A DNA stretch of 64,000 bases from an uncultured Candidatus Saccharibacteria bacterium (GCA_964369115.1 CAYJED010000002.1:10193-74192), one strand, 5' to 3'; positions 2,386-58,423 are shown, counted from the first letter of the stretch. Numbers and translations: made by a program. The notes: generated by a model from the letters alone, not told the origin.

Positions 2386-5300
2386 CCTTCCACTAAATCT
2401 TTTTCAAACTGAAGCAATCCTTTGTATGACTCTCCATACGACGAAAGATCCATAACAAATGTAAGAGAGGTAATTTTTGTATACACTACCTCAATCAATT
2501 TTTCCACAAACGCAAGTTCTTCTTCAGAAGCATCTAAGAAAAGAGAAATTGGCTTTTTTTCTTCCACAAAAAGAAGTGACACTTTTACAACAGGAAGATC
2601 GCTATAGTGTATAGACTTACGGAGAAGAATAATATACATAATGAGTTGCAAACGATACATATGAAGCTTTATCTTCTCTTGATCTGTCGCCGCATCATCC
2701 CATGACGCATATGCTTTTCCTGTTTTTATATCCACCACTTCATAATGTTCTTTTGTTTTTCTAAGGAGGTCAATTTTACCTGTGAGACGTGCTTCACCTA
2801 AAGTTACACCCTCATCTTTCATATCCACTTCCACCATATCCCCTTCTTTAAAAAGACTTTCTTTGTGTTCAAAAAGCGTATGCAACACTTTCTTGCCTCG
2901 CTCTTCCTGCTTTTCTTTTTCATACAACGGAAGACGTCCACGTCTAAGCGTTGAAGAAAATGTTGCGAGTAAGGTCTCAAGTGAAGCTTGTTTTCCGGCG
3001 TTATATTTTGGATACATTACAAGCTCTTCAAGAGCTTTATGAATAGAAGATCCATAAACTCCAGACGGATTCATCGGCTGAGGAAAGCGTAGCAGATTTT
3101 GCTCAACGAAATAAAGTGGACCACCTTCCTGTAGATTAAGGAAGTTATTTAGATGCGTTACCGGCATTTTATAATTTTTAACGAGACGAGATAGGAGCAC
3201 CCATTCATCTTCTTTGAATGGATCTTTATGCAAAAGGAGAGCATTCTCGTGAGCTTCAATTGGAACTTCTTCATGCTCCTCTTCTCCCTCTTGCTCTACA
3301 AGATACCGCACAAGTGCATCATGTCCTGAAATATGAAGGGTGTGCTTTGCGCGGGTAAGCGCAACATACAGAAGTCGTATGAAGTCATCTTCAGTGTCTC
3401 CTGCTGGCTGCATAAGAGGAACAAGAGGTGCTGGAAGTGGTGCAATGTTAGTGCGCGGCGACTTAGTCCATAAACTATCATGACAAGCAATCACATACAC
3501 ATGCTCAAATTCAAGCCCTTTAGAAGCATGCGAGGTAAGAAGCTGTACTGACTTTTCATGCTTCATAAAAGGTGACTCACTAATAAGCGAAATATCATGA
3601 TCTTTATGTGTTTGCACAAACGAAGCAACATCACTTACAAAAAGCACTTCCCCTTCTTTCCATTCACGCAAGCTTTCGATAAATGTTTTAAGTGAAGCAA
3701 GGAAGGCAACATACGTCGTCGGGCTTTCTTTGATACGGTCTTGCGAAAAATAAAATTCCTTAAATCCACTTTTTTCCATAAATTGCTCCAGTATATGTTC
3801 AAGTGGTGTAGTGAGCGCTTCTACCGAAAGAGAAGCAAATATATCATGAAGCTCTTGTATTTTTGGAATAGAAGATTCTTTCATTGCTGCCACCCATGAG
3901 ACATGACGCTCTTTTGCCTCTACCGCCAATGTGAAGAGATCTATTCTTTCAAGTGAAAAACATGGATAAGAAAGAATTGTTGGGAGGAGATACTCTTTTG
4001 TTACCTCTTCTGAAAGCGTTGAAGCTATATACTCACACACATCGATAAGAATTTTTACATGAGGCTCATCAAACACGTTTGCTTTCTTTATGTACTCATA
4101 CGGAATATTTTCTCGATCAAGATATGGAAGAAGCGCACGAAGCTCGCGGTGACCACGAGAAAGAACAGCTATTTCATCAGGCTCTCCACCTGCGTCGAGC
4201 GCTTTACGTATAGAACGAGCAACGTGAGCATATTCTGCAACATCAGAATTTTTACGCGTAATAGTAATACCCCCCTCCTTAAGATTTTTATTTTTTGCAA
4301 CAAGGACTTTTGTAATATCTTCATACTTATTTTCAAGGCGACCACTTCCTTTAATTTGCGTAATGAGACCTCTGGAAAGATCGAGCACCTCTTGAGTAGA
4401 ACGATAGTTTTCATCAAGCACCACTGTCTTTACGTTTTTATAGAGCGAGTCACGAAAACGCATCATATGAGATACTTCTGCACCTTGGAATTTATAAATC
4501 GCCTGATCATCGTCCCCTACCACACACACATTCGGTGAGCCTTCATGTACAGGGTGAGAGGTAATTGATCGAACCAGTGACATTTGTGCTTCGTTGGTAT
4601 CCTGAAACTCATCAATAAGTACATACTGATATTGCTCTTCGAGTGTATTTCTAAGCACGCTGTCATGTGTAAGAGCATGCGCTACTTCAATAATCATATC
4701 GTCATAGTCATATAAAGCGGAGGCATTCATTTGCTTACTGTAGCTTTCATATATTTCTGCAACAGCAAGTAATTTATCTTTTTGATAACTATCCTTACAG
4801 ATAAGCACATCATTTTCCTTAACGAGATATTTTGTTTTCCATGATGCAATAGGCTCTGTTACTCCTATCTGCTCTGCATGCTCAAACGCCTGACTAAGTG
4901 TCTTTGCAAGATATCCTGAAGTGACCCCTTGTAGCTTTTCTAATTTTTCTACAATTGAAGTTACTTCGTCTAATTTTTTTGCTGAAAGTCGCGCTGGCCA
5001 GTCCGTAAAACATGCGTTAATTGCATCGTGCTCATGAGTGAGTGACTGAACTACTGCTTTATATTCTTCTGCGGTATACCCATAACTTTTAATATGTTTG
5101 ATACGATCGGCGGTATCTCGTAGATATACATACCCCTTTTCCGGATGGTAACTTGCAAGCGGATGACCATGTGGAAGCGAAGCAAAAATCGCCTGTAATA
5201 GCTCTGCTTTTGTAATATCATTTGCTTGAATAAAGTGAGTTGCATTCCAAAAATATTCTGGGAAGCGAGAAATAATGTGATTACAAAATGCATGGAAGGT

Positions 5301-5600
5301 AAAGATGGAAACTCTATAAGCATTTTGTCCAATGAGAGCAACAAGACGCTCACGCATGTTAATTGCTCCATTTTCTGTAAAGGTAAGACAAAGAATGTTG
5401 TGCGGAGACACAGGACGTTCTCGTAAAATATTTCCCACACGAAGTGAAAGAAGTTCTGTTTTACCTGATCCAGGGCCAGCCACCACAAGAAGTGGGCCAT
5501 CTAGCGTATCTACCGCTTCTTTTTGTTTTGTATTTAATTTCTTGTATCGTTCTAGAAAGACATGGTCCATACATATCTCAGTATACGCCATGTTGACCAC
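2376..5600 (-). CDS. UvrD/PcrA-family ATP-dependent helicase with C-terminal PD-(D/E)XK nuclease domain (AddA-like)
   Basis: Walker A AGPGSGKT near N-terminus, UvrD helicase motifs, C-terminal VVDIKTGK nuclease motif; 1074 aa. Confidence 0.8.
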   Translation of the reverse strand: MVNMAYTEICMDHVFLERYKKLNTKQKEAVDTLDGPLLVVAGPGSGKTELLSLRVGNILRERPVSPHNILCLTFTENGAINMRERLVALIGQNAYRVSIFTFHAFCNHIISRFPEYFWNATHFIQANDITKAELLQAIFASLPHGHPLASYHPEKGYVYLRDTADRIKHIKSYGYTAEEYKAVVQSLTHEHDAINACFTDWPARLSAKKLDEVTSIVEKLEKLQGVTSGYLAKTLSQAFEHAEQIGVTEPIASWKTKYLVKENDVLICKDSYQKDKLLAVAEIYESYSKQMNASALYDYDDMIIEVAHALTHDSVLRNTLEEQYQYVLIDEFQDTNEAQMSLVRSITSHPVHEGSPNVCVVGDDDQAIYKFQGAEVSHMMRFRDSLYKNVKTVVLDENYRSTQEVLDLSRGLITQIKGSGRLENKYEDITKVLVAKNKNLKEGGITITRKNSDVAEYAHVARSIRKALDAGGEPDEIAVLSRGHRELRALLPYLDRENIPYEYIKKANVFDEPHVKILIDVCEYIASTLSEEVTKEYLLPTILSYPCFSLERIDLFTLAVEAKERHVSWVAAMKESSIPKIQELHDIFASLSVEALTTPLEHILEQFMEKSGFKEFYFSQDRIKESPTTYVAFLASLKTFIESLREWKEGEVLFVSDVASFVQTHKDHDISLISESPFMKHEKSVQLLTSHASKGLEFEHVYVIACHDSLWTKSPRTNIAPLPAPLVPLMQPAGDTEDDFIRLLYVALTRAKHTLHISGHDALVRYLVEQEGEEEHEEVPIEAHENALLLHKDPFKEDEWVLLSRLVKNYKMPVTHLNNFLNLQEGGPLYFVEQNLLRFPQPMNPSGVYGSSIHKALEELVMYPKYNAGKQASLETLLATFSSTLRRGRLPLYEKEKQEERGKKVLHTLFEHKESLFKEGDMVEVDMKDEGVTLGEARLTGKIDLLRKTKEHYEVVDIKTGKAYASWDDAATDQEKIKLHMYRLQLIMYIILLRKSIHYSDLPVVKVSLLFVEEKKPISLFLDASEEELAFVEKLIEVVYTKITSLTFVMDLSSYGESYKGLLQFEKDLVEGKI

Positions 5601-5622: not shown

Positions 5623-6222
5623 GTGTTAGATCTTCCACAAATTAAGGAGAACCACATGTTCACTGCAATTGATGATAAGCTCATTGAGTGTGCTCAGTGG
5701 ACAGTACGACAAATTGAGCTGTTTACGAAGTACACAAGGAAAGATGTCGGCGTTGTTGTAAGACAGCTACAACTTATCTCAGGAGCTTTTTCGATTTTTG
5801 TTGCACTGCTTTGTGTTGGCAACTTTAGTAAAGATAAAACCTTGCTTCTTGTTGCAGTTCCCATGTTTCTTGTTGCTTTACTTCAAAGAAACATTGCCAT
5901 CAAAATTAAAAATGAAAAAGAGGTTTTTGGTATACAACCAAGCTCGATCATAAATGAAAAAACGTTCCGCCAGACAACAATCTCTATGATCATCAACTTC
6001 TCTTTCAGTCTTTTTTTAGTGAATTTTTTTCTGGGAAACGAAAAGGATATTCCTGCTTTGTGGACATTTGTTAACGTAGCTAAAATAAATATCAGTATTT
6101 TAAGTATTCTTCTTCTCGGTCTCTACTTCCTCTGTACCAGCTCTTTGCCTCCAGGAGAAAAACAAAAAAGGCTTCTTGAAAGAGAATACAAGAAACTAAC
6201 TCCTGTGCCCATCAAAAACTAA
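5623..6222 (+). CDS. hypothetical membrane protein
   Basis: 199 aa, several predicted TM helices; no family recognised. Confidence 0.45.
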   Translation: MLDLPQIKENHMFTAIDDKLIECAQWTVRQIELFTKYTRKDVGVVVRQLQLISGAFSIFVALLCVGNFSKDKTLLLVAVPMFLVALLQRNIAIKIKNEKEVFGIQPSSIINEKTFRQTTISMIINFSFSLFLVNFFLGNEKDIPALWTFVNVAKINISILSILLLGLYFLCTSSLPPGEKQKRLLEREYKKLTPVPIKN

Positions 6223-6247
6223 AGCGATCCACAAGGGTCGCTTTTTC

Positions 6248-6841
6248 TTATGAAGAGATATCGAACTTTTTGAACTCTTCGGTGCACGCTCTAAGTCTTT
6301 CTACGAGCACGTGATCTTTACCAAGTCTTTGCTCACTTATCATAAGCACCTGCTCGTTAAGCCAGATACGATTACGCATACTTGACCCAAATGATTGAGC
6401 AAACGCCTCACCTTCTTTCTTAAATGAATCAAGAAAACTTTCAGTGTTATGAATTTTATCTGCACAAGAAACTAAGATACTTTCAATAGGACCTTCTTCT
6501 AAACGCTTTAAGTACATTTCTTTTCGAGTAAGCCACGGCAGCTGATCAAAAACACTTTTATTTGCATCAAGCGGCTCAGTAACGTGAGCAACTATCGTAG
6601 CTACTCGCTCCCCACAGTCTTGTGTCAACTTTTCATACGTATACCCTTTTACATCTTCAAGACTGTCATGAAGCATGCCTGCAATAATAATATCTTCATC
6701 TAAAGTAACAGAAGAAAGCAAGAAGGCTACACCCATTAAGTGTGAAATATACGGGGTCTTAGATGCATCATTCCTTACTTGGTCACGATGAAGGAGAGAA
6801 GCAAGATTGATCGCTTCGTAAACACGAGGAGAAAATACCAT
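6248..6841 (-). CDS. HD-domain phosphohydrolase, small alarmone ((p)ppGpp) hydrolase-like
   Basis: YISHLMGVAFLL...IIAGMLHDSLED resembles RelA/SpoT HD hydrolase motif (H...HD...ED). Confidence 0.55.
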   Translation of the reverse strand: MVFSPRVYEAINLASLLHRDQVRNDASKTPYISHLMGVAFLLSSVTLDEDIIIAGMLHDSLEDVKGYTYEKLTQDCGERVATIVAHVTEPLDANKSVFDQLPWLTRKEMYLKRLEEGPIESILVSCADKIHNTESFLDSFKKEGEAFAQSFGSSMRNRIWLNEQVLMISEQRLGKDHVLVERLRACTEEFKKFDISS

Positions 6842-51386: not shown

Positions 51387-53933
51387 TTACCTAAGATGTT
51401 TATATTCTTCACAGTCACACTTCTTCACCTTCTTCCCTCTTCCACATGGACATGGGTCATTACGTCCAAATTTTTCTGCACCACTTGTAGCAGCAACTGA
51501 ATGAGAAGGAGATTCAACTTGCGGAATCACCGAAACAAAACTTGCCTCTTGAGCTGCTTGTGCCTGTTGAGCAGCAAAGAACCCGTCAAGATTTTCCACA
51601 AATGTAGTCATCTCACCCTCGATTGAAGCTTCAAGGTTACGGAACGCTCGAAGACCTTCTTTTTTGTATTCAACAAGTGGATCACGCTGACCGTACGCAC
51701 GAAGGTTTACACTTGAACGAAGGTGCTCCATGTAATCAATATGATCCATCCATAACGTATCAATTACCTGAAGAAGCATAACTCTAAAGATATGACGCAC
51801 AGCAAGTGATCCGTACTTTACTTCTTTACCTTCAAAGTTTTCTTTAAGTCCTTCTTTTTTAGCAAAGAGATCCTGAAGCACTTCATCAATAAATGAAGCA
51901 TCTTCAAAAAGAATTTTGCGACGACGAGCATACACGCTTGTTCGCTGCTGATTTAAAACATCGTCATACTGAAGTGTATGCTTACGAGTATCAAAATGGA
52001 AGCCTTCAATTTTTTCCTGAGCACCTTCAAGAGCGCGCGACACAAGCTTAGACGCAATAGGCTCATCTTCTGGGATACCAAAGCGCCCCATCATGGTTTT
52101 TATATTTGAAGAACCAAACACTCGCATAAGATCGTCTTCAAGGGAAACAAAAAACTGCGTCTCACCTTTATCTCCTTGGCGCCCCGCACGTCCACGAAGC
52201 TGATTGTCAATACGACGAGCCTCATGACGTTCAGTACCAATCACAAAGAGTCCGCCAAGAGTAAGCACTTCCTCTTTTTCAGCATCTGTTGCTTGTGGAC
52301 CGCCAAGTTTAATGTCTACTCCACGACCTGCCATGTTGGTTGCGATAGTTACTGCACCACGCTTTCCAGCTTCTGCAATAATCTCTCCTTCTTTTTCGTG
52401 GTTCTTCGCATTAAGTACTGCATGAGGAACACCTTCACGAGTGAGGTAGGTAGAAATTGCCTCATTTTTTTCAATAGAAATAGTACCAATAAGTACTGGT
52501 TGTCCCTTTTCATGAAGTTCTTTTACCTTCTTTGAAAGTGCTTGCCACTTACCTTTTTCGGTTTGGAAAATAAAGTCTGGATGATCGGTACGCGAAATGA
52601 TGTTATGTGTTGGAATTGGAGTCACCACAAGACCGTATACTTTATAGAACTCTTCTTTTGAAGTTTCTGCAGTCCCTGTCATTCCTGCAAGCTTTTCATA
52701 GAAGCGGAAATAGTTCTGGAATGTAATAGACGCAAGTGTTCGAGACTCCTGCTCCACCTTCACCCCCTCTTTTGCTTCTACCGCTTGATGAAGACCGTCT
52801 GACCAGCGACGCCCTGGCTGCATACGCCCAGTAAATTCATCAACGATAATAACTTCACCGTCTTTTACCACGTATTCTTTTTCTCGAACAAAAAGCGCTT
52901 TTGCTTTTACCGCAGTCTCAAGATGATGTACATACTTCACTGTTTCAAGTGAATAAATATTTGAAATATTAAGAAGTGCTTCTGCTTTATTGATTCCTGA
53001 TTCAGTAAGAGAAATGGCTCGCTGCTTTTCATCAACGGTATAATCTTCATCTAAAATAAGCTGTTCTGCAATCTGCGCAAAACGAACATACATGTCACTC
53101 GACTCTTGTGAAGGAGCAGAGATGATAAGCGGGGTACGTGCTTCATCGATAAGGATCGAGTCAATTTCGTCAACGATTGCAAAATGATGTGTGTGCTGAG
53201 TGAGAGCATCTTTGTTGTATCCAATATTGTCACGAAGATAATCAAACCCAAACTCGTTATTTGTACCGTAGGTAATATCTGCTCTGTATGCCTCCTGACG
53301 ATTACACGGCTTAAGGTAGTCGTATACAACTTTATATGACCCTACTTCATCACGTTTAATGTCATCTTCTTTCTGTTCACTCTCTTCTAAATGATCAGCA
53401 TCATACATAAATGATGACTGATGATTGATAACTGAAACAGTAACACCAAGCGCATCATATACCTGCCCCATCCACACTGCATCACGACGTGAAAGGTAGT
53501 CGTTGACAGTAACAATGTGTACACCACGACCAGTGAGTGCGTTTAAGTATGCCGGAAGTGTTGCAACAAGTGTCTTTCCTTCTCCTGTACGCATTTCTGC
53601 AATATGACCACGATGAAGAAGTATTCCTCCAATCACCTGCACACGATAATGCATCATATGAAGTGTGCGGCGAGCACTTTCTCTCACAAGCGCAAACGCT
53701 TCAGGGAGAACCTCTTCAAGAATTTTCTTTTCTTTTTGCTTTAAATCATCCCCTACCAAACCTTCAAGCTCTTTCATTACTCGTGCTTTAAGCACAAGAC
53801 TTTTTTCTTTGAGCTCAGTATCTGAAAGTGTTTTAAGTGTTTCTTCATACGAAAAAACAACATCTACTAAAGGAGTAAGCGATTTAATGGTTTTTTTGGA
53901 CTCGTCCGGAAAAAGCTTTGTAATAAAAGACAT
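51387..53933 (-). CDS. secA: preprotein translocase ATPase SecA
   Basis: DEAD-like motor domains, C-terminal zinc-binding CPCGRGKKVKKCDC. Confidence 0.9.
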   Translation of the reverse strand: MSFITKLFPDESKKTIKSLTPLVDVVFSYEETLKTLSDTELKEKSLVLKARVMKELEGLVGDDLKQKEKKILEEVLPEAFALVRESARRTLHMMHYRVQVIGGILLHRGHIAEMRTGEGKTLVATLPAYLNALTGRGVHIVTVNDYLSRRDAVWMGQVYDALGVTVSVINHQSSFMYDADHLEESEQKEDDIKRDEVGSYKVVYDYLKPCNRQEAYRADITYGTNNEFGFDYLRDNIGYNKDALTQHTHHFAIVDEIDSILIDEARTPLIISAPSQESSDMYVRFAQIAEQLILDEDYTVDEKQRAISLTESGINKAEALLNISNIYSLETVKYVHHLETAVKAKALFVREKEYVVKDGEVIIVDEFTGRMQPGRRWSDGLHQAVEAKEGVKVEQESRTLASITFQNYFRFYEKLAGMTGTAETSKEEFYKVYGLVVTPIPTHNIISRTDHPDFIFQTEKGKWQALSKKVKELHEKGQPVLIGTISIEKNEAISTYLTREGVPHAVLNAKNHEKEGEIIAEAGKRGAVTIATNMAGRGVDIKLGGPQATDAEKEEVLTLGGLFVIGTERHEARRIDNQLRGRAGRQGDKGETQFFVSLEDDLMRVFGSSNIKTMMGRFGIPEDEPIASKLVSRALEGAQEKIEGFHFDTRKHTLQYDDVLNQQRTSVYARRRKILFEDASFIDEVLQDLFAKKEGLKENFEGKEVKYGSLAVRHIFRVMLLQVIDTLWMDHIDYMEHLRSSVNLRAYGQRDPLVEYKKEGLRAFRNLEASIEGEMTTFVENLDGFFAAQQAQAAQEASFVSVIPQVESPSHSVAATSGAEKFGRNDPCPCGRGKKVKKCDCEEYKHLR

Positions 53934-54082
53934 AGTTAGGAGATTATACCATATATAGAGGCTAGAATATAGACACCCATAACTGTCTCATCCATCTTTA
54001 TGTAACAAGAGCACAAAACAAAACAAGCTCCATGGGAGTGGAGCTTGTTTTGTTTAAAGAACTAAAGGAGACTCGAAGTAAA

Positions 54083-54223
54083 TTACTTCTTTGATGTCTT
54101 CTTAACAGCTTTCTTTGCAACTTTTTTTACTGCTTTCTTTGCTACCTTCTTAGGTGCAGCCTTCTTAACAGCTTTCTTTGCAACTTTTTTTACTGCTTTC
54201 TTGGCAGCTTTTTTTACTGGCAT
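54083..54223 (-). CDS. tiny lysine/alanine-rich basic protein with KKAAKKAV repeats (histone H1/Hc1-like)
   Basis: MPVKKAAKKAVKKVAKKAVKKAAPKKVAKKAVKKVAKKAVKKTSKK (46 aa); contains ~45-nt internal tandem duplication. Confidence 0.5.
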   Translation of the reverse strand: MPVKKAAKKAVKKVAKKAVKKAAPKKVAKKAVKKVAKKAVKKTSKK

Positions 54224-54410
54224 AGAATTATTTATTATTCAAAATCTATGAGAGTGCTTGTAAATTTTTGATCACGACCGTTGATCACTACTCTCTATGT
54301 ATAAGTATGACACTCTCGTACATACACACAATAGTTTTGTATGTGAAGTGTGTGGATAACTTGCAATTTTTATAAAATCTATTTATGCAAATGCGAAGCA
54401 TTCGCATAAA

Positions 54411-54466
54411 TAGTTAATAGTTAATAGTTAATAGTTAATAGTTAATAGTTAATAGTTAATAGTTCC
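54411..54466. repeat. heptanucleotide tandem repeat (TAGTTAA) x ~7.5
   Basis: tagttaatagttaatagttaat... directly read. Confidence 0.9.
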
Positions 54467-54535
54467 TCTGCTTATAGTAAAAGTGTAGCCGAGCTAAAAG
54501 TAAGAGAGCAAGTAATTTAATTTAAATATAAAAAT

Positions 54536-54566
54536 GAAAAAGCCCCGCACGGAGTACCGTGCGGGA
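54536..54566 (-). terminator. GC-rich rho-independent terminator of GC-rich island gene
   Basis: minus strand: gtcccgcacgg-tact-ccgtgcggggc followed by tttttcatttt. Confidence 0.75.
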
Positions 54567-54627
54567 CAAGGACTAAGTCCAAAGGGTCCAAGTGCTAATT
54601 GAGACCTAAGTGAACACATCCTCAGTG

Positions 54628-55254
54628 CTAACCTGCAAGCACGGCAGACGGGCGGTTGGCGTCCCACTCGACGTCCAACCAAGTGTAGCGCCAGCGCCAC
54701 CTGCCATCGCTCCAGAACAAGTCCAGGACGTAGCGGCCGCCGCCCGAGTGCTGCAGAATGGTTCCGTCGAAGAACACGTACGTGGTGTTGCCGTTGGTGG
54801 GTTGCTTCCACGCTTCGGGGATGAGGTGTTGGTTTTCCCAGAGGGTCTGAAACACCTTCGCATCGAGGCGAATGTCGCCAGATGCGATGAGGCGTTTCAG
54901 CTTCTCATTACCGACCACCGTATTTTCGCGGCCCTTCAGCGTCGTTTTGAAGCTGACCTTCGCCAGGTCCACTTCGGTGAGCTTGAGGGAACGCTTGTCT
55001 TCCTCGACGATGGACCAGCCGTTACCGATGAAGGCGACGGGGTCGAAAGCGGAGGTACGGTCGACAGTGATGACCTTCGGAACGCCTGAGATGACACGTC
55101 CGCCGTTCTTGAGGAAGGCGGTGAACTCACGTCCTGCGTCCTTCGGGTTGTCGATGACCTTCTGCAGGATGGAAGCATTGACCGCATCCCAATCCGCATT
55201 GTTCATCAGAATACCGATGGCGTTGAGAACCTGACCTTGTGAGGACTTGTTCAT
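54628..55254 (-). CDS. hypothetical protein encoded in ~58% GC island (foreign composition)
   Basis: Start MNKSSQ with aggaga SD 7 nt upstream; balanced amino-acid composition vs Ala/Arg-rich antisense frames; C-terminal WSDGRWRWRYTWLDVEWD; no family recognised. Confidence 0.55.
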   Translation of the reverse strand: MNKSSQGQVLNAIGILMNNADWDAVNASILQKVIDNPKDAGREFTAFLKNGGRVISGVPKVITVDRTSAFDPVAFIGNGWSIVEEDKRSLKLTEVDLAKVSFKTTLKGRENTVVGNEKLKRLIASGDIRLDAKVFQTLWENQHLIPEAWKQPTNGNTTYVFFDGTILQHSGGGRYVLDLFWSDGRWRWRYTWLDVEWDANRPSAVLAG

Positions 55255-55548
55255 TTGGGTATCTCCTAAGGATTGGCTGACCACGCGTAGAAGCGTAGCT
55301 TGACCGTGCTAGAGGGCTCAAACAAGAGTTTGTTTACCATAGCTTCAAATCTACAATCGCAAGGATTGTGAAACTTAAAGCTAAGGTAAACACAAGTTAA
55401 GTATATTCAAAGAACTCCTATACTATATAATATAGCACATTTGTACATAAAAGTCAATAGCCTAATCTAACAAACCATTAAGAAACTAAGAAGCACTGAT
55501 TTACAATGATTCTATAAAAATACAAGATTTTTTATTCAAAGAACATGA

Positions 55549-55581
55549 TAAGCGTGCGACACCGAAGGTGTCGCACGCTTA
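55549..55581. repeat. GC-rich palindromic hairpin (taagcgtgcgacacc-gaa-ggtgtcgcacgctta)
   Basis: Near-identical stem to hairpin at 58463-58490 in inverted loop orientation. Confidence 0.7.
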
Positions 55582-55602
55582 CTATATGTTGCTTATTAAC
55601 TA

Positions 55603-56139
55603 CTACTTACTTTCTACTGTCGGAAACGCTCTCGCATTATAGCTATGCACTTGTGCAATACATCTACACCCCTTAGGAGCAATGAACTCGTTTACAAACT
55701 CTTCTCCATAGTCATACACAATTTCTTCCCCTTCTTTTATATTTTTAATTGCTTTTACAAACACTCTCCCTTTTTTAATTTCACTTTCCGCATTTGCTGC
55801 TTCTTCACATGCATGATTGCAGTAACGTGCGATATTCCATCTCACTGATCCATCAATCGTCTTATTACGATTCACTTCAAAGAGGTACTGATTACTCTTT
55901 ACCTGATCTGCCTCTTCTTTATTTAAAATATTTCCGATATATTCAATAATAAGCTCCCCTTTCTTAATATCTTCGCCAGCAAAGAGCCCTAAACCTGCAA
56001 GCCCTCGTTTTACTTTTACTATTTTGAAATGGTGATCTGGGAGTTTTGGGGTATCTTTTGTAGAAACCTTCTTAACAATGTTCTTACTCACCTTTTTCTT
56101 CGAACCTTCTTTTAAAATTTTTGACTGTTTAGTTAACAT
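55603..56139 (-). CDS. SET-domain protein lysine methyltransferase
   Basis: GELIIEYIGNIL, NIARYCNHACEEAN, GEEIVYDYG SET motifs; Lys-rich N-terminal tail. Confidence 0.8.
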   Translation of the reverse strand: MLTKQSKILKEGSKKKVSKNIVKKVSTKDTPKLPDHHFKIVKVKRGLAGLGLFAGEDIKKGELIIEYIGNILNKEEADQVKSNQYLFEVNRNKTIDGSVRWNIARYCNHACEEAANAESEIKKGRVFVKAIKNIKEGEEIVYDYGEEFVNEFIAPKGCRCIAQVHSYNARAFPTVESK

Positions 56140-56275: not shown

Positions 56276-58423
56276 ATGAAGCAGATTCCAGAGACACTTA
56301 AAAAACCTTTTGATGCGACCGCAGTTGAGAGCACCCTCTACGATATGTGGGAAAAGAGTGGGTATTTTAATCCAGATAATCTTCCAGGTGAACGAGCTCG
56401 CGCATATACCGTGGTACTTCCTCCACCAAATGTCACTGGAACATTACACACTGGGCATGCCATCATGCTTGCTATACAAGATACACTTATCCGCTTCAAG
56501 CGAATGAGCGGATATAAAGCTCTCTGGATACCTGGTACTGATCACGCTGCCATTGCGACACAGTCTGTAGTTGAAAAAAAGATTCAAAAAGAAGAAGGTA
56601 AAAGTCGTCACGATCTCGGACGAGAAGAAATGATGCGTCGTATTAATGCTTTTGCACTTGAAAGCCAAAATACTATTCTTGCTCAAACAAAATCAATGGG
56701 TGCATCTCTTGACTGGTCTAGACTTTCATTTACATTAGATGACACACGTAACCTTGCAGTACGTACGATGTTTAAAAAGATGTACGACGATGGACTTATT
56801 TATCGTGGGCAGCGCATTGTTAACTGGGACCCGAAAGGACAAACCACTATTTCAGATGATGAAACAGTAACAGAGGAGAGAAAAGGAGTTCTTTACACAT
56901 TTAAATACAGTAAAGACTTCCCTATTGCTATCTCTTCAACACGACCAGAAACAAAAGTGGGGGATGTTGCTGTTGCTGTACATCCAGATGATGAACGATA
57001 TAAAGAATATGTCGGAAAAGAATACAGCATGACATTTGCTGGATGCCCTATCACTATTCGTGTTATCGCAGATGAAGCAGTAGAAAAAGAGTTTGGAACT
57101 GGAGCTCTTGGTGTAACCCCTGCACATAGCACAATTGACTGGGAGATTAAGGAGCGTCACAACCTCCCTTCAATTCAAGTCATTAATGAATACGCAAAGA
57201 TGTTCGGACTTACAAATGAAGAACTCAATGGAAAAAAAGTGACGGATGCTCGCGAATACATCGTTAACTGGCTTAAAGAAGAAGGTCTTCTTCTTGAAGA
57301 AAAAGAAGTGGTGCAGAATATCCCTACAGCAGAACGAACTGGCGGGGTTATTGAACCACTTCCAAAACTACAATGGTTCGTTGCGGTAAATAAACCTTTT
57401 TCTCATTTTGGAAAAGAAACGACACTTAAAGAGCTTATGCGTAAAGCAGTAGAAAGTGGAGATACAACTGTTTTACCTGACCGTTTTGAAAAGGTGTACT
57501 ATCATTGGATCGAGAATCTTCGTGATTGGTGTATTTCTCGCCAGATCTGGTACGGACACCAAGTCCCTGTTTGGTACAAAGGTGAGGAAATCTACTGTGG
57601 AGTAGAAGCACCTGTTGGAGACGGATGGGTACAAGATGAAGATACACTTGATACATGGTTTTCTTCTGGAATGTGGACATTCTCAACACTTGGATGGCCA
57701 GAGAAAACAAAAGATATGGAAACATATCACCCGACAGCGCTTCTAGAAACGGGCCATGACATTCTTTTCTTCTGGGTGGCACGTATGGTGCTCTTTTCTC
57801 TGTACGCATTAAACGAAGTGCCGTTTAAACATGTGTACCTTCATGGACTCGTTCGTGATGCTCAAGGACGTAAGATGAGTAAATCACTCGGAAACGCACT
57901 TGATCCTCGAGAACTTTCAACAAAGTATGGAACTGACGCGCTTCGCATGGCACTCATTGTTGGAAACGGCCCAGGAAACGATCTTAAGCTTGGTGAAGAC
58001 AAAGTAAAAGCATACAAACTCTTTGCAAATAAAATATGGAACGCAACGCGTTTTGTACTCGAAAAAACCGAAGACTTTGAAACTGCCTCAACTGCATCGT
58101 TTAACGAAGAAGATAGAGCGGTGTATGACGCATGGCATGCTGTACATAAAGATATTACAGATGACCTTGAGAACTATCGTCTTCATCTTGCTTCAGAAAA
58201 GATTCACAATTACTTCTGGCATATTTTCTGTGATGAAATAATTGAAACACGTAAAGTTCGTATTATGGAAAACCAAGACAAAGAAAGTGCCCAGCTTCTC
58301 CTTACTACAATGCTTCGAGAGCTCATTATCACTCTTCATCCATTTATGCCATTCATTACAGAAGAACTATGGAAGCATCTAAAAAAAGATACTGATGAGA
58401 TGCTTATCGTAACAAAGTGGTAA
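56276..58423 (+). CDS. valS: valyl-tRNA synthetase (short form, no C-terminal coiled coil)
   Basis: PPPNVTGTLHTGHA HIGH region, KMSKS at residues 533-537, 715 aa total. Confidence 0.9.
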   Translation: MKQIPETLKKPFDATAVESTLYDMWEKSGYFNPDNLPGERARAYTVVLPPPNVTGTLHTGHAIMLAIQDTLIRFKRMSGYKALWIPGTDHAAIATQSVVEKKIQKEEGKSRHDLGREEMMRRINAFALESQNTILAQTKSMGASLDWSRLSFTLDDTRNLAVRTMFKKMYDDGLIYRGQRIVNWDPKGQTTISDDETVTEERKGVLYTFKYSKDFPIAISSTRPETKVGDVAVAVHPDDERYKEYVGKEYSMTFAGCPITIRVIADEAVEKEFGTGALGVTPAHSTIDWEIKERHNLPSIQVINEYAKMFGLTNEELNGKKVTDAREYIVNWLKEEGLLLEEKEVVQNIPTAERTGGVIEPLPKLQWFVAVNKPFSHFGKETTLKELMRKAVESGDTTVLPDRFEKVYYHWIENLRDWCISRQIWYGHQVPVWYKGEEIYCGVEAPVGDGWVQDEDTLDTWFSSGMWTFSTLGWPEKTKDMETYHPTALLETGHDILFFWVARMVLFSLYALNEVPFKHVYLHGLVRDAQGRKMSKSLGNALDPRELSTKYGTDALRMALIVGNGPGNDLKLGEDKVKAYKLFANKIWNATRFVLEKTEDFETASTASFNEEDRAVYDAWHAVHKDITDDLENYRLHLASEKIHNYFWHIFCDEIIETRKVRIMENQDKESAQLLLTTMLRELIITLHPFMPFITEELWKHLKKDTDEMLIVTKW

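Follow-up and report, generated by a model that had tools for sequence, protein, structure and literature searches.

To our knowledge, bacterial SET proteins are known almost only as pathogen effectors aimed at host histones. In a full-text literature search, no paper combined 'SET domain' with Patescibacteria, or candidate phyla radiation (CPR) with histone H1. The closest described systems, of which an earlier sequence-only reading of the DNA analysed here had correctly cited the chlamydial and archaeal ones, are BaSET of Bacillus anthracis, which trimethylates several lysines of histone H1; cpnSET of C. pneumoniae, which was reported to bind Hc1 and Hc2 and to methylate Hc1; and Go1-SET of Methanosarcina mazei, which was reported to methylate MC1-alpha (PMC3980110). 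However, methylation of Hc1 by chlamydial SET proteins is disputed (PMC6426960). NUE of C. trachomatis, a secreted effector, failed to methylate Hc1; this makes the chlamydial precedent a contested one, and with it the case for bacterial SET proteins acting on their own chromatin.

The window, by which we mean the whole 64-kb stretch of DNA that was analysed, contains minus-strand ORFs for a SET-domain protein (SET) and a small lysine/alanine-rich protein (KA), both of which were present where the sequence-only reading had placed them. That reading had put about 1.4 kb between them, and the gap from the SET stop codon to the KA ATG measured 1,379 nt. Both genes of its two-gene picture are real, but an intervening ORF of 208 aa (54628-55254) had been overlooked. 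Its assignment to a CPR-like genome was borne out by the related loci, 68 of 68 of which came from Patescibacteria MAGs. The interval is best read as three minus-strand genes (SET, a DGR target and KA), each probably transcribed independently, with the following features.

54016-54055, minus strand: intrinsic terminator of KA, between KA and secA; 17-bp stem with flanking A/U tracts (-25.6 kcal/mol, z=-6.9)
54083-54223, minus strand: KA gene (ORF) for a 46-aa polycationic K/A/V-repeat protein
54098-54214, no strand: internal duplication in KA; two 54-nt copies, 63-nt period, 91% identity
54218-54296, minus strand: KA leader element (covariance model R1) with outer helix GAGAG/CUCUC
54302-54309, minus strand: conserved CATACTTA (TGT-CATACT), candidate extended -10 box; nearly invariant columns in alignments A2 and A3
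54351-54362, minus strand: 12-mer AAGTTATCCACA, including the perfect DnaA-box consensus TTATCCACA; invariant in 19 aligned species
54379-54413, minus strand: palindromic motif ...TTATGCrAAnnCTTCGCATTTGCATAAAT...; 16-bp hairpin in the window (z=-7.4)
54409-54464, no strand: heptanucleotide repeat (AATAGTT)x8, which reads (AACTATT)x8 on the strand of the genes, at that edge of the KA upstream region which is farther from KA; TRF score 112, 100% matches
54500-55330, no strand: island of high GC content (55-60%, surroundings about 38%), with no second such island in the 64-kb window
54542-54567, minus strand: GC-rich hairpin with a U-run, downstream of the gene for the DGR target; the 101-nt stretch scored z=-5.25
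54628-55254, minus strand: orphan DGR variable (target) protein gene, 208 aa; AGGAG Shine-Dalgarno sequence 8 nt before the ATG, exact product on record
55548-55582, minus strand: intrinsic-terminator hairpin directly after the SET stop codon; 16-bp stem (-31.5 kcal/mol, z=-7.5)
55603-56139, minus strand: SET-domain protein gene (ORF; Pfam SET), 178 aa
56041-56139, minus strand: Lys-rich N-terminal tail of SET, residues 1-33; motif M-x-x-K-Q-S-x-I-L-K-x-G-S/G-K

Residues 49-145 of SET matched the Pfam PF00856 profile over its full length (positions 1-105) with E=4e-24 and a score of 85.5 bits, the cut-off being 22.4. No further Pfam domain was found in the 178-aa protein, which consists of a Lys-rich N-terminal tail, the SET core and a post-SET-like C-x-C-x4-H. 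The segments G49-L-G51, R105-Y-C-N108-H109-A-C111 and Y142-D-Y144 (GxG, RYCNHAC and YDYG) were invariant in 20 homologues, as were C111, C158, C160 and H165; in C158-x-C160-x4-H165, which together with C111 would correspond to the post-SET zinc cluster of three Cys plus the Cys of NHxC, the third post-SET Cys is replaced by His. Profile matching gave KMT2C/D, MLL1 and SET1 as the best solved relatives (E about 1e-19; query 48-176). The catalytic core is shared with the eukaryotic KMT2 (MLL/SET1) enzymes, since the GxG, NHxC and YDY motifs (also against KMT2C individually) and the post-SET Cys cluster align; however, the bacterial protein has no N-SET, WIN, PHD or other KMT2 regions, and an invariant His takes the place of the third post-SET Cys. 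KMT2 enzymes need WRAD partner proteins. Homologues of SET numbered 533, with 68-86% identity among the 120 matches listed; an AlphaFold2 model built from 20 close homologues (pLDDT 37) was too poor for fold comparison. The identity of SET and the integrity of its motifs are demonstrated, and the motifs indicate that SET is probably a catalytically competent lysine methyltransferase of minimal SET plus post-SET form, nearest to the KMT2 catalytic domain.

The KA ORF translates to MPVKKAAKKAVKKVAKKAVKKAAPKKVAKKAVKKVAKKAVKKTSKK. Its direct repeat copies (54098-54151 and 54161-54214) share an identical first 42 nt and 15 repeated residues, AKKAVKKVAKKAVKK; the internal tandem duplication of about 45 nt proposed earlier is real, but it is a 54-nt repeat with a 63-nt period rather than a head-to-tail 45-mer. 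An HMMER homology search with KA yielded 6,120 word-sharing candidates, none of which scored, because of the low complexity and compositional bias of the protein, and orthologues were located by pattern-based ORF scans instead. Over 54 orthologues, the composition was 47% K, 30% A and 11.5% V, with a 12-nt (4-aa) repeat period; the MAAKKK and AKRA ends were kept in 38 of the 54, around a length-variable repeat core of 21-58 aa.

Since low-complexity sequence keeps open frames easily and HMMER finds no homologues, the ORF might be untranslated, the conserved thing being an RNA or a DNA repeat. The pattern of change argues otherwise. Where two species had identical proteins, the differences between their KA genes fell at third codon positions (10/10 and 8/8; 18/18 together), and overall the differences at codon positions 3, 1 and 2 numbered 289, 111 and 81, with 228 synonymous against 142 non-synonymous codon changes. 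The ATGGCA start and the AKRA-stop end were conserved, all length changes across 54 species were in frame, and Lys codons were AAG in 564 cases and AAA in 323 in a genome of 38% GC. KA is truly coding, and its protein is under purifying selection; an untranslated ORF is highly improbable.

When KA was scanned against all Pfam-A models at E up to 1, the single match was a chance one to Rv1893 (E=0.85), with none to the Hc1 (PF07432), Hc2 (PF07382) or linker histone H1 (PF00538) models, and a search of NCBIfam gave none. The 46 aa of KA are repeats, which leaves no space for a winged-helix domain. The earlier comparison with H1 tails and Hc1 holds for composition but not for the Hc1, HC2 and linker-histone Pfam models, and by its composition KA falls in the class of H1-tail-like polycations, which is a functional class and not a homology family. 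Repeats of the AKKA/KKAV type, extreme positive charge and repeat-driven length polymorphism also mark the H1 C-terminal domain, the mycobacterial HupB C-terminus, Pseudomonas AlgP and Bordetella BpH1; KA differs from these in being the repeat alone, with no attached folded domain, and the likeness is compositional, with no linker-histone Pfam match. The KA product would be a very small polycation of about 35 residues, typically about 47% of them Lys, that is intrinsically disordered and probably abundant; by analogy with the H1 C-terminal tail or the Lys/Ala tails of nucleoid proteins in bacteria, it would bind nucleic acid, most likely DNA.

As in the chlamydiae, where cpnSET and NUE/CT737 occur together with Hc1 and Hc2, a SET enzyme is encoded here in a genome with a Lys/Ala-rich, H1-like protein of a kind that condenses DNA in those bacteria. 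However, KA is 5-10 times smaller than Hc1/Hc2 and has neither an N-terminal domain nor a match to the Hc1/HC2 Pfam models, the SET and KA genes are direct neighbours in most species, and the host is a non-chlamydial CPR bacterium. Go1-SET is likewise a minimal prokaryotic SET enzyme whose target, MC1-alpha, is an endogenous small basic DNA-binding protein; MC1 is folded, of about 90 aa, with one target lysine, whereas KA is a repeat polycation without a fold, and gene adjacency does not form part of the Go1-SET/MC1 report as quoted (PMC3980110). BaSET resembles our protein in being a small bacterial SET protein that acts on a Lys/Ala-rich H1, but it targets the H1 of the host after export, whereas the candidate substrate here is encoded next door in the same genome.

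The pair proved to be conserved in related genomes: of the 63 species-level loci with enough flanking sequence, 53 had KA closely downstream of SET and in the same orientation. The 64-kb window contained exactly one K/A-rich ORF of the KA type, and related loci with such an ORF had one each, always at the same place downstream of SET, which indicates that the pairing is more than chance. SET-KA was kept in four flanking contexts (ValRS/SecA, ValRS/HPF, GluRS/PilM and other flanks), and it was intact where the flanks were rearranged to GluRS-SET-KA-PilM (L060 and L062), SET-KA-ATPase (L061) and ValRS-SET-KA-HPF (L052). KA was present in the deepest clades of the SET tree, and the pair spanned SET divergence down to about 50% identity. 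The order SET -> KA is ancestral and has long been retained in this Patescibacteria lineage. Two SET clades (10 species) had an intact SET with KA not found within 10 kb, and in L056, L057 and L059 the HPF (hibernation-promoting factor) gene directly followed SET; there have been at least two losses or relocations of KA next to SET, so either SET has other substrates or KA has moved. The wider block Hsp20-ValRS/SET-KA-SecA-MurF was syntenic as a whole. Among divergent loci, ValRS-SET adjacency was kept in about 15 of 23 and SET-KA adjacency in about 12 of 22; ValRS has no obvious functional tie to SET despite its equally conserved adjacency.

The description of the locus as a compact module did not survive closer analysis, because SET ends in a conserved terminator of its own and KA is equipped with a separate promoter region, leader and terminator. 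Related loci carried a GC-rich hairpin of different sequence at the same position after SET. SET and KA are separate transcription units, not an operon. We also considered KA as a secM-like leader peptide for secA and rejected it, since KA has its own terminator and is followed by an HPF, PilM or ATPase gene in other species.

KA carries a conserved upstream region of about 240 nt, in which 7-nt repeats, the palindromic motif and the DnaA box precede a leader hairpin at its end. Degenerate 7-nt-period 'nCTAnnn' arrays occurred at the same place as the heptanucleotide repeat in 17 of 35 related loci, and the palindromic motif, which forms conserved columns in alignment A2, was unique in the window (expected 0.04). 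The 12-mer AAGTTATCCACA was found in 38 of the 69 loci searched, as a single copy except in L060 (two), and nearly always at about 130-150 nt before the KA start codon; the exact DnaA box of the window is at 54351-54359. Its conservation suggests that DnaA may control KA synthesis, and CATACTTA would act as a promoter from which the transcript starts at the leader hairpin. We rejected the DnaA box as part of an oriC, because it is a single box with no cluster and the cumulative GC skew falls monotonically across the window; DnaA-box matches with up to one mismatch numbered 22 in the window against 17 expected. Through the 7-nt repeats, palindromic motif, DnaA box and structured 5' leader hairpin, KA synthesis would be controlled separately.

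The leader contains an inner hairpin of 6-8 bp whose GGUC(G) loop is conserved, and the A/U-rich stretch after it includes a TG-n-TATAAT-like sequence about 12 nt before the KA ATG. Its structure was derived from per-sequence folds, a hand-specified structure and covariance model R1, the stem columns of a MAFFT alignment being out of register. R1 gave one match per locus, always 5' of KA (62 bits and E=3e-10 in the window). In the alignment fitted to this model, for a transcript predicted from sequence, 90.8% of cells were paired against 26-49% in slid controls; double changes occurred in 10 of 14 pairs, with G-U tolerated, and 0 of 500 shuffles reached the observed values. A search of Rfam gave no match at gathering thresholds and only chance-level matches at E up to 10. 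The predicted leader is a conserved structured RNA with a putative cis-regulatory role. When metagenomes were scanned with the leader pattern, 115 of 120 matches were random and 5 were true, all in the same block; SET lay upstream in 4 of the 4 with enough upstream flank, and beyond that the scan says nothing on whether KA implies SET.

The GC island was inserted between SET and the upstream region of KA, and it is this insertion of the orphan DGR target gene that accounts for the gap of 1.4 kb. The 208-aa ORF had 344 homologues and no Pfam match; its AF2 model (pLDDT 86) gave only weak C-type-lectin-like fold matches. Like other CPR DGR targets, its homologues have bAvd and reverse-transcriptase (RVT_1) genes next to them, and the VR/TR pairs there show mismatches at TR adenines; L190 and L191 have bAvd, RVT_1 and VR/TR pairs of 126-130 nt with 82-88% identity that differ at TR adenines, and L006 and L050 carry Avd and RT genes within the SET-KA gap. 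The intervening gene belongs to the DGR target family. Unlike complete CPR DGRs, the copy in the window has no TR, Avd or RT within 64 kb (tblastn for RT and Avd at E up to 1; no TR-like repeat), so it is an orphan or trans-served target; the hairpin at 54542-54567 is its terminator and/or a DGR-associated hairpin. The target was probably inserted secondarily and would be unrelated to the SET-KA pair. Insertions of this kind fall in the SET-KA gap, yet the upstream region of about 240 nt stays intact, and SET and KA are still not beyond 3 kb apart. We rejected a defence or phage gene, there being no PHROG or PADLOC match to the ORF. An assembly chimera is not supported either, because an independent Logan contig, 100% identical to the window over 54435-55974, crosses both sides of the junction.

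The long-retained adjacency makes a writer-plus-substrate chromatin pair plausible and testable. SET would methylate lysines of KA, and perhaps its own tail, and methylation would tune KA binding, resistance to proteases or acylation, or condensation behaviour. By analogy with the characterised pairs, methylation of KA by SET is the reading that we prefer, tentatively and as something short of probable; it is plausible, not demonstrated. Lysine methylation leaves the charge unchanged, which counts against it, and the separate units, the wider synteny and the two clades without an adjacent KA leave the coupling plausible only. An extended version, a minimal and vertically inherited system in which an H1-tail-like polycation, tied to replication by the DnaA box and gated by the leader RNA, is served by a dedicated KMT2-like SET writer whose H3-tail-like N-terminus is an auto-substrate or autoinhibitor, seems improbable. 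It is quite possible that SET and KA are neighbours by inheritance only, functionally unrelated within a very stable housekeeping block, and that SET has a different substrate, for example its own tail, a translation factor or a ribosomal protein. The conservation of Hsp20-ValRS/SET-KA-SecA-MurF as a whole, the separate transcription units, the 10 species with SET and no nearby KA, the HPF gene directly after SET in three loci and a ValRS adjacency conserved as well as that of KA all fit such neighbours. However, the pair has outlasted at least three rearrangements that replaced both flanks (L060/L062, L061 and L052), it is ancestral across SET divergence to about 50% identity, repeated DGR insertions have left the genes within 3 kb, and there are precedents for SET enzymes on Lys-rich chromatin proteins.

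Structured leaders with a conserved loop are typical of autoregulated RNA-binding or ribosomal proteins, and at every locus KA is directly preceded by the covariation-supported hairpin with its GGUC(G) loop, which would argue for KA binding RNA. KA might be a small basic protein associated with RNA or the ribosome, autoregulating through the hairpin, which SET may or may not modify. KA is tiny and very basic, has strong expression signals and has translation and secretion housekeeping genes as neighbours, and other bacteria have ribosomal proteins of comparably small size and high basicity; in yeast, ribosomal proteins are among the substrates of SET-domain enzymes. We consider this role unlikely, since KA matches no ribosomal protein family, has disappeared from its position in two clades, as a core ribosomal protein rarely does, and ranges from 21 to 58 aa by gain and loss of repeats, a spread that suits a bulk polycation more than a protein at a fixed site on the ribosome; the invariant upstream DnaA box hints at a link with replication. 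KA would be irrelevant if SET were an exported effector that methylates proteins of the host cells carrying these episymbionts, as are chlamydial NUE, Legionella RomA/LegAS4 and Bacillus BaSET. Patescibacteria are considered host-dependent, which would suit an effector, but the cells they probably live on are prokaryotic and have no histone tails. Most of the characterised SET proteins from bacteria are effectors directed at a host (PMC3980110), and the sole NCBIfam match of SET, weak and partial, was to the model for the effectors LegAS4/AnkI, at 44.8 bits where the cut-off is 550. An effector is nevertheless very unlikely: SET has no evident signal peptide, its N-terminus being the conserved Lys-rich tail, it is inherited vertically as part of a housekeeping block and keeps 68-86% identity across the 120 matches listed, unlike fast-evolving effectors, and it was not found in viral or mobile contexts, where the only match was to a giant virus (27% identity).

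Because SET and an H1-tail-like polycation are encoded side by side across a lineage, they form a simple, directly testable writer-substrate candidate, comprising one 178-aa enzyme and one peptide of roughly 35 aa that is chemically synthesisable, from non-pathogenic, ultra-small bacteria. If SET does methylate KA, CPR bacteria would join the organisms whose DNA-packaging polycations are methylated on lysine, with a bearing on the origin of SET-based chromatin marking; the extended version, if true, would give prokaryotes other than pathogens and archaea a free-standing counterpart of histone-tail writing. New here are the DGR insertion that explains the gap, the KA upstream region and the leader hairpin without an Rfam match. 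The upstream region adds a new conserved RNA motif and a conserved DnaA-box candidate promoter, which are rare handles on gene regulation in organisms that are not culturable alone.

The N-terminal tail of SET is Lys-rich, as the sequence-only reading had described: 11 of the 33 residues ahead of the PDHHFK core are K or R. Among 20 homologues, K4, S6 and L9 were invariant, and Q5 was conserved in at least 90%. A Lys-rich tail was present in every crown-clade SET, all of which either had KA or lacked enough flank; among loci with enough flank, every SET with such a tail was accompanied by KA, which counts towards their linkage. The spacing of M-x-x-K-Q-S...G-G-K at the SET N-terminus, spotted by eye and then counted, is that of K4-Q5-T6...G12-G13-K14 in histone H3, and we record it as a lead only.

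The sequence-only reading paired a SET-domain protein with a small Lys/Ala-rich protein (KA) as a chromatin-modification module. This observation was correct in substance, and both ORFs were recovered, at 55603-56139 and 54083-54223; however, the interval from 54083 to 56139 contains three ORFs rather than two, the third being a 208-aa ORF between SET and KA. The features of the interval and its flanks are as follows.

56276-58423, plus strand: valS, divergent from SET, flanking the interval
55603-56139, minus strand: SET ORF, 178 aa
55548-55582, minus strand: SET terminator hairpin (z=-7.5)
54628-55254, minus strand: ORF of the GC-rich island, 208 aa, with a good Shine-Dalgarno sequence (clear AGGAG)
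54542-54567, minus strand: terminator hairpin of the island ORF
54409-54464: heptanucleotide array (AATAGTT)x8, (AACTATT)x8 on the gene strand, perfect in the window
54379-54413: conserved palindromic motif TTATGCAAAnnCTTCGCATTTGCATAAAT, unique in the window
54351-54362, minus strand: 12-mer AAGTTATCCACA with a perfect DnaA box, invariant in 19 aligned species
54218-54296, minus strand: KA leader element (covariance model, 62 bits, E=3e-10)
54083-54223, minus strand: KA ORF, 46 aa, product MPVKKAAKKAVKKVAKKAVKKAAPKKVAKKAVKKVAKKAVKKTSKK
54016-54055, minus strand: KA terminator hairpin (z=-6.9)
51387-53933, minus strand: secA, the other flank of the interval

Each of the three genes is followed by a strong hairpin terminator of its own. 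The two genes form a conserved, ancestral pair, but the module is not compact, as SET and KA are expressed separately.

A scan for SET loci with one genome per species yielded 68 loci (L001-L068), all from Patescibacteria (labelled Paceibacterota, Nomurabacteria or Parcubacteria). Conservation of the pair in related genomes, which had been proposed as a check, was found: SET is followed by KA in 53 of the 63 loci with enough flank, and KA is always downstream and in the same orientation, mostly 190-480 nt past the SET stop codon. In L016, which has too little flank, the KA leader is present at the contig end. A single K/A-rich ORF is present in the entire 64-kb window, and likewise a single one in each related locus that has it. 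In a distance tree of SET cores, loci with KA occur in the deepest clade (L065-L068, SET about 50% identical), in L060 and L062 and throughout the crown, whereas those lacking KA fall into two clades (L045, L046 and L048; L053 and L055-L059); L064, the tenth locus lacking KA, could not be placed. From this distribution, we infer that the SET-KA pair is ancestral and has been lost or relocated at least twice. When metagenomes were scanned without bias for the KA-leader pattern, only five true matches emerged, and SET was upstream in all four with enough upstream flank. L045, one of the species without KA beside SET, encodes about 3.3 kb upstream (6343-6711, minus strand) a 122-aa protein with a long Lys/Ala/Pro-rich H1-like C-terminal tail (...AKAAPKKAVAKKPATKKPAAKKPAAKK...), and this fusion protein may supply the polycation function there.

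The SET ORF matched the Pfam SET profile along the entire model (E=4e-24). For a profile of 20 homologues, the closest solved structures were the catalytic domains of KMT2C/D, MLL1 and SET1 (E about 1e-19), with NSD, EZH2 and G9a ranking next; the aligned region spans the GxG, NHxC and YDY motifs and continues into the post-SET region. The residues of these motifs and C111, C158, C160 and H165 are invariant among the homologues, and the enzyme looks catalytically active. The protein database contained 533 homologues, the best 120 of which shared 68-86% identity and had named sources that were all Patescibacteria. An AlphaFold model built from a shallow alignment had a pLDDT of 37, too low for use. 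The Lys-rich N-terminal tail described earlier was confirmed as the first 33 residues (56041-56139, minus strand), with the conserved motif K-Q-S-x-I-L-K-K-G-G-K. Among 42 distinct SET tails, 26 carry M-x-x-K-Q-[ST], with the motif right behind a Met, and 37 have KQ[ST]-x5-GGK in the spacing of K4-Q5-T6...G12-G13-K14 of histone H3; this likeness of M-x-x-K-Q-S-x-I-L-K-K-G-G-K to H3 is post hoc and a lead only. The nearest solved relatives of SET are H3K4 methyltransferases. The N-terminus may be a pseudo-substrate or an automethylation site, or its likeness to H3 may be coincidence. All SETs with a Lys-rich tail come from loci with KA, and tail-less SETs from loci with or without it, a correlation confounded by phylogeny.

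The internal duplication reported in KA is present, although as 54-nt direct copies with a period of 63 nt (91% identity, initial 42 nt identical) and not as a tandem repeat of about 45 nt. The ATGGC(A) start is retained in 54 species, and 38 of the 54 orthologues have MAAKKK... and ...AKRA ends; their length ranges from 21 to 58 aa, with in-frame repeat changes. Two species pairs encode identical KA proteins, and the 10 and 8 nucleotide differences between their genes lie exclusively in third codon positions; differences over 38 pairs numbered 289, 111 and 81 at codon positions 3, 1 and 2, respectively. The 54 orthologues comprise 47% K, 30% A and 11.5% V, and AAG is favoured over AAA for lysine despite the AT-rich genome, which would be consistent with an efficiently translated mRNA avoiding slippery A tracts. 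KA is a real protein under selection, and non-translation is effectively excluded. Its proposed H1/Hc1-like character stood in composition, but searches of Pfam and NCBIfam, including Hc1, HC2 and linker histone, gave no family match; HMMER was unable to score KA. The resemblance to H1 tails is compositional, and homology is not demonstrable.

Alignment of the SET-KA spacer from 19 species revealed elements in a constant order: SET terminator (only its position is conserved), 7-nt array, palindrome, 12-mer, conserved TGT-CATACT, nested hairpin and A/U-rich stretch. Degenerate 7-nt-period nCTAnnn arrays were found at the equivalent place in 17 of 35 related loci. In the window, the (AATAGTT)x8 repeat directly abuts the palindromic motif (TTATGCrAAnnCTTCGCATTTGCATAAAT), and together they could form a regulator-binding array or a promoter element prone to slippage and phase variation; the repeat also interrupts an independent assembly contig. 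The 12-mer occurs in 38 of 69 loci searched, including the most divergent, as a single copy in each except L060, which has two, and lies about 130-150 nt 5' of the KA start in nearly all 38. A replication origin at this site was rejected, as there is no box cluster and the cumulative GC skew declines throughout the window without a turn. Since the DnaA box lies outside any origin, DnaA may regulate the transcription of KA. The A/U-rich stretch contains TG-n-TATAAT about 12 nt before the KA ATG. TATAAT-like boxes ending about 12 nt before the ATG, without a Shine-Dalgarno sequence, precede both secA (53934-53960) and KA (54224-54245) on the minus strand, and the native genes at this locus may use very short leaders.

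The leader covariance model gave one match per locus in about 50 related loci, always immediately 5' of KA. In this structure, an outer helix, GAGAG/CUCUC, encloses a covarying inner hairpin whose GGUC(G) loop is conserved. In the alignment, which was fitted to the model, 90.8% of cells were paired, versus 26-49% with slid partners. Both sides changed in 10 of 14 pairs, including 7 of the 8 in the inner helix, and none of 500 shuffles reached the observed values. The tolerance of G-U pairs on the sense strand of KA favours RNA pairing over a DNA palindrome. The stability of the window hairpin alone was unremarkable (z=-1.15), and Rfam contained no matching family. This conserved element is undescribed and is a putative structured leader RNA.

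On the basis of gene order, the best-supported reading is an ancestral pair of a writer and its candidate substrate. SET, a minimal KMT2-like enzyme, would form the writer half. KA, a polycation resembling H1 tails, probably coats nucleic acid, and its expression would be under elaborate control, possibly tied to replication via the DnaA box. That SET acts on KA is plausible, but we hold it tentatively. The main rival, only slightly less likely, is plain synteny, with SET acting on another substrate: a wider Hsp20-ValRS/SET-KA-SecA-MurF block is syntenic in most loci, so SET-KA adjacency by itself is weak evidence, and ValRS-SET adjacency is retained about as often as SET-KA in divergent loci. 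However, the pair persists where the block is broken, as ValRS/SET-KA/HPF in L052 and, judged by their layout, in L047 and L054, GluRS-SET-KA-PilM in L060 and L062, and SET-KA-ATPase in L061. The structured leader would fit a KA that binds RNA or the ribosome, which we consider unlikely.

The cpnSET-Hc1, Go1-SET-MC1-alpha and BaSET-H1 pairs provide precedents (PMC3980110), although the chlamydial SET-Hc1 precedent is contested (PMC6426960). The SET-KA arrangement is a new version of something already described, bacterial SET enzymes alongside Lys-rich, chromatin-like proteins of the same cell. Its new accessories are the leader RNA motif and the candidate DnaA-box promoter, which is conserved. 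A full-text literature search returned no paper joining 'SET domain' with Patescibacteria, or candidate phyla radiation (CPR) with histone H1. The pair is easily tested and bears on the endogenous role of bacterial SET proteins.

The island between SET and KA (54500-55330) has 55-60% GC versus roughly 38% for the genome. The family of its 208-aa ORF yielded 344 matches, all 'hypothetical', and none in Pfam, PHROG or PADLOC; the predicted fold (pLDDT 86) had no significant match in the PDB, with weak C-type-lectin-like matches only. Two homologues (L190 and L191) adjoin bAvd and an RVT_1 reverse transcriptase (RT), and a second copy of their C-terminal 126-130 nt lies downstream, with 82-88% identity. 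The mismatched positions are adenines in the downstream copy, a pattern that marks the VR/TR pairs of a diversity-generating retroelement (DGR). The SET-KA gap holds Avd and RT genes in L006 (12106-13447), which also has a homologue of the window ORF, and in L050 (7931-9301); DGR fragments were found in L002, L018 and L012. These similarities place the 208-aa ORF in the DGR variable-protein family, as an orphan variable (target) gene; no TR, RT or Avd for the window copy was found within 64 kb. The 1.4-kb separation of SET and KA reflects secondary insertion of this orphan target, an ordinary event for CPR genomes, which spared the KA control region of roughly 240 nt. An independent Logan contig was 100% identical over 54435-55974. 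The clear AGGAG of the inserted gene, which secA and KA lack, marks the island as foreign.

Target genes have 52-60% GC inside genomes of 34-42% GC. GC-rich single-gene inserts (56-67% GC) also occur in KA-SecA or SET-KA spacers of L040 (10522-11139), L027 (about 4800-5350) and L029 (about 5830-6280), with no detectable similarity to the window DGR target. Several species carry DGR cassettes or fragments in their SET-KA or ValRS-SET spacers, a recurrence suggestive of an insertion hot spot.

Among loci that are otherwise similar, the identity of ValRS to the window protein had two modes, about 50% (L001, L004-L007, L009, L033, L034, L036, L038, L039 and L063) and 65-83% (others), whereas SecA identity was 73-84% in the same genomes. 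This pattern suggests that valS was replaced in place by a distant xenologue in some lineages.
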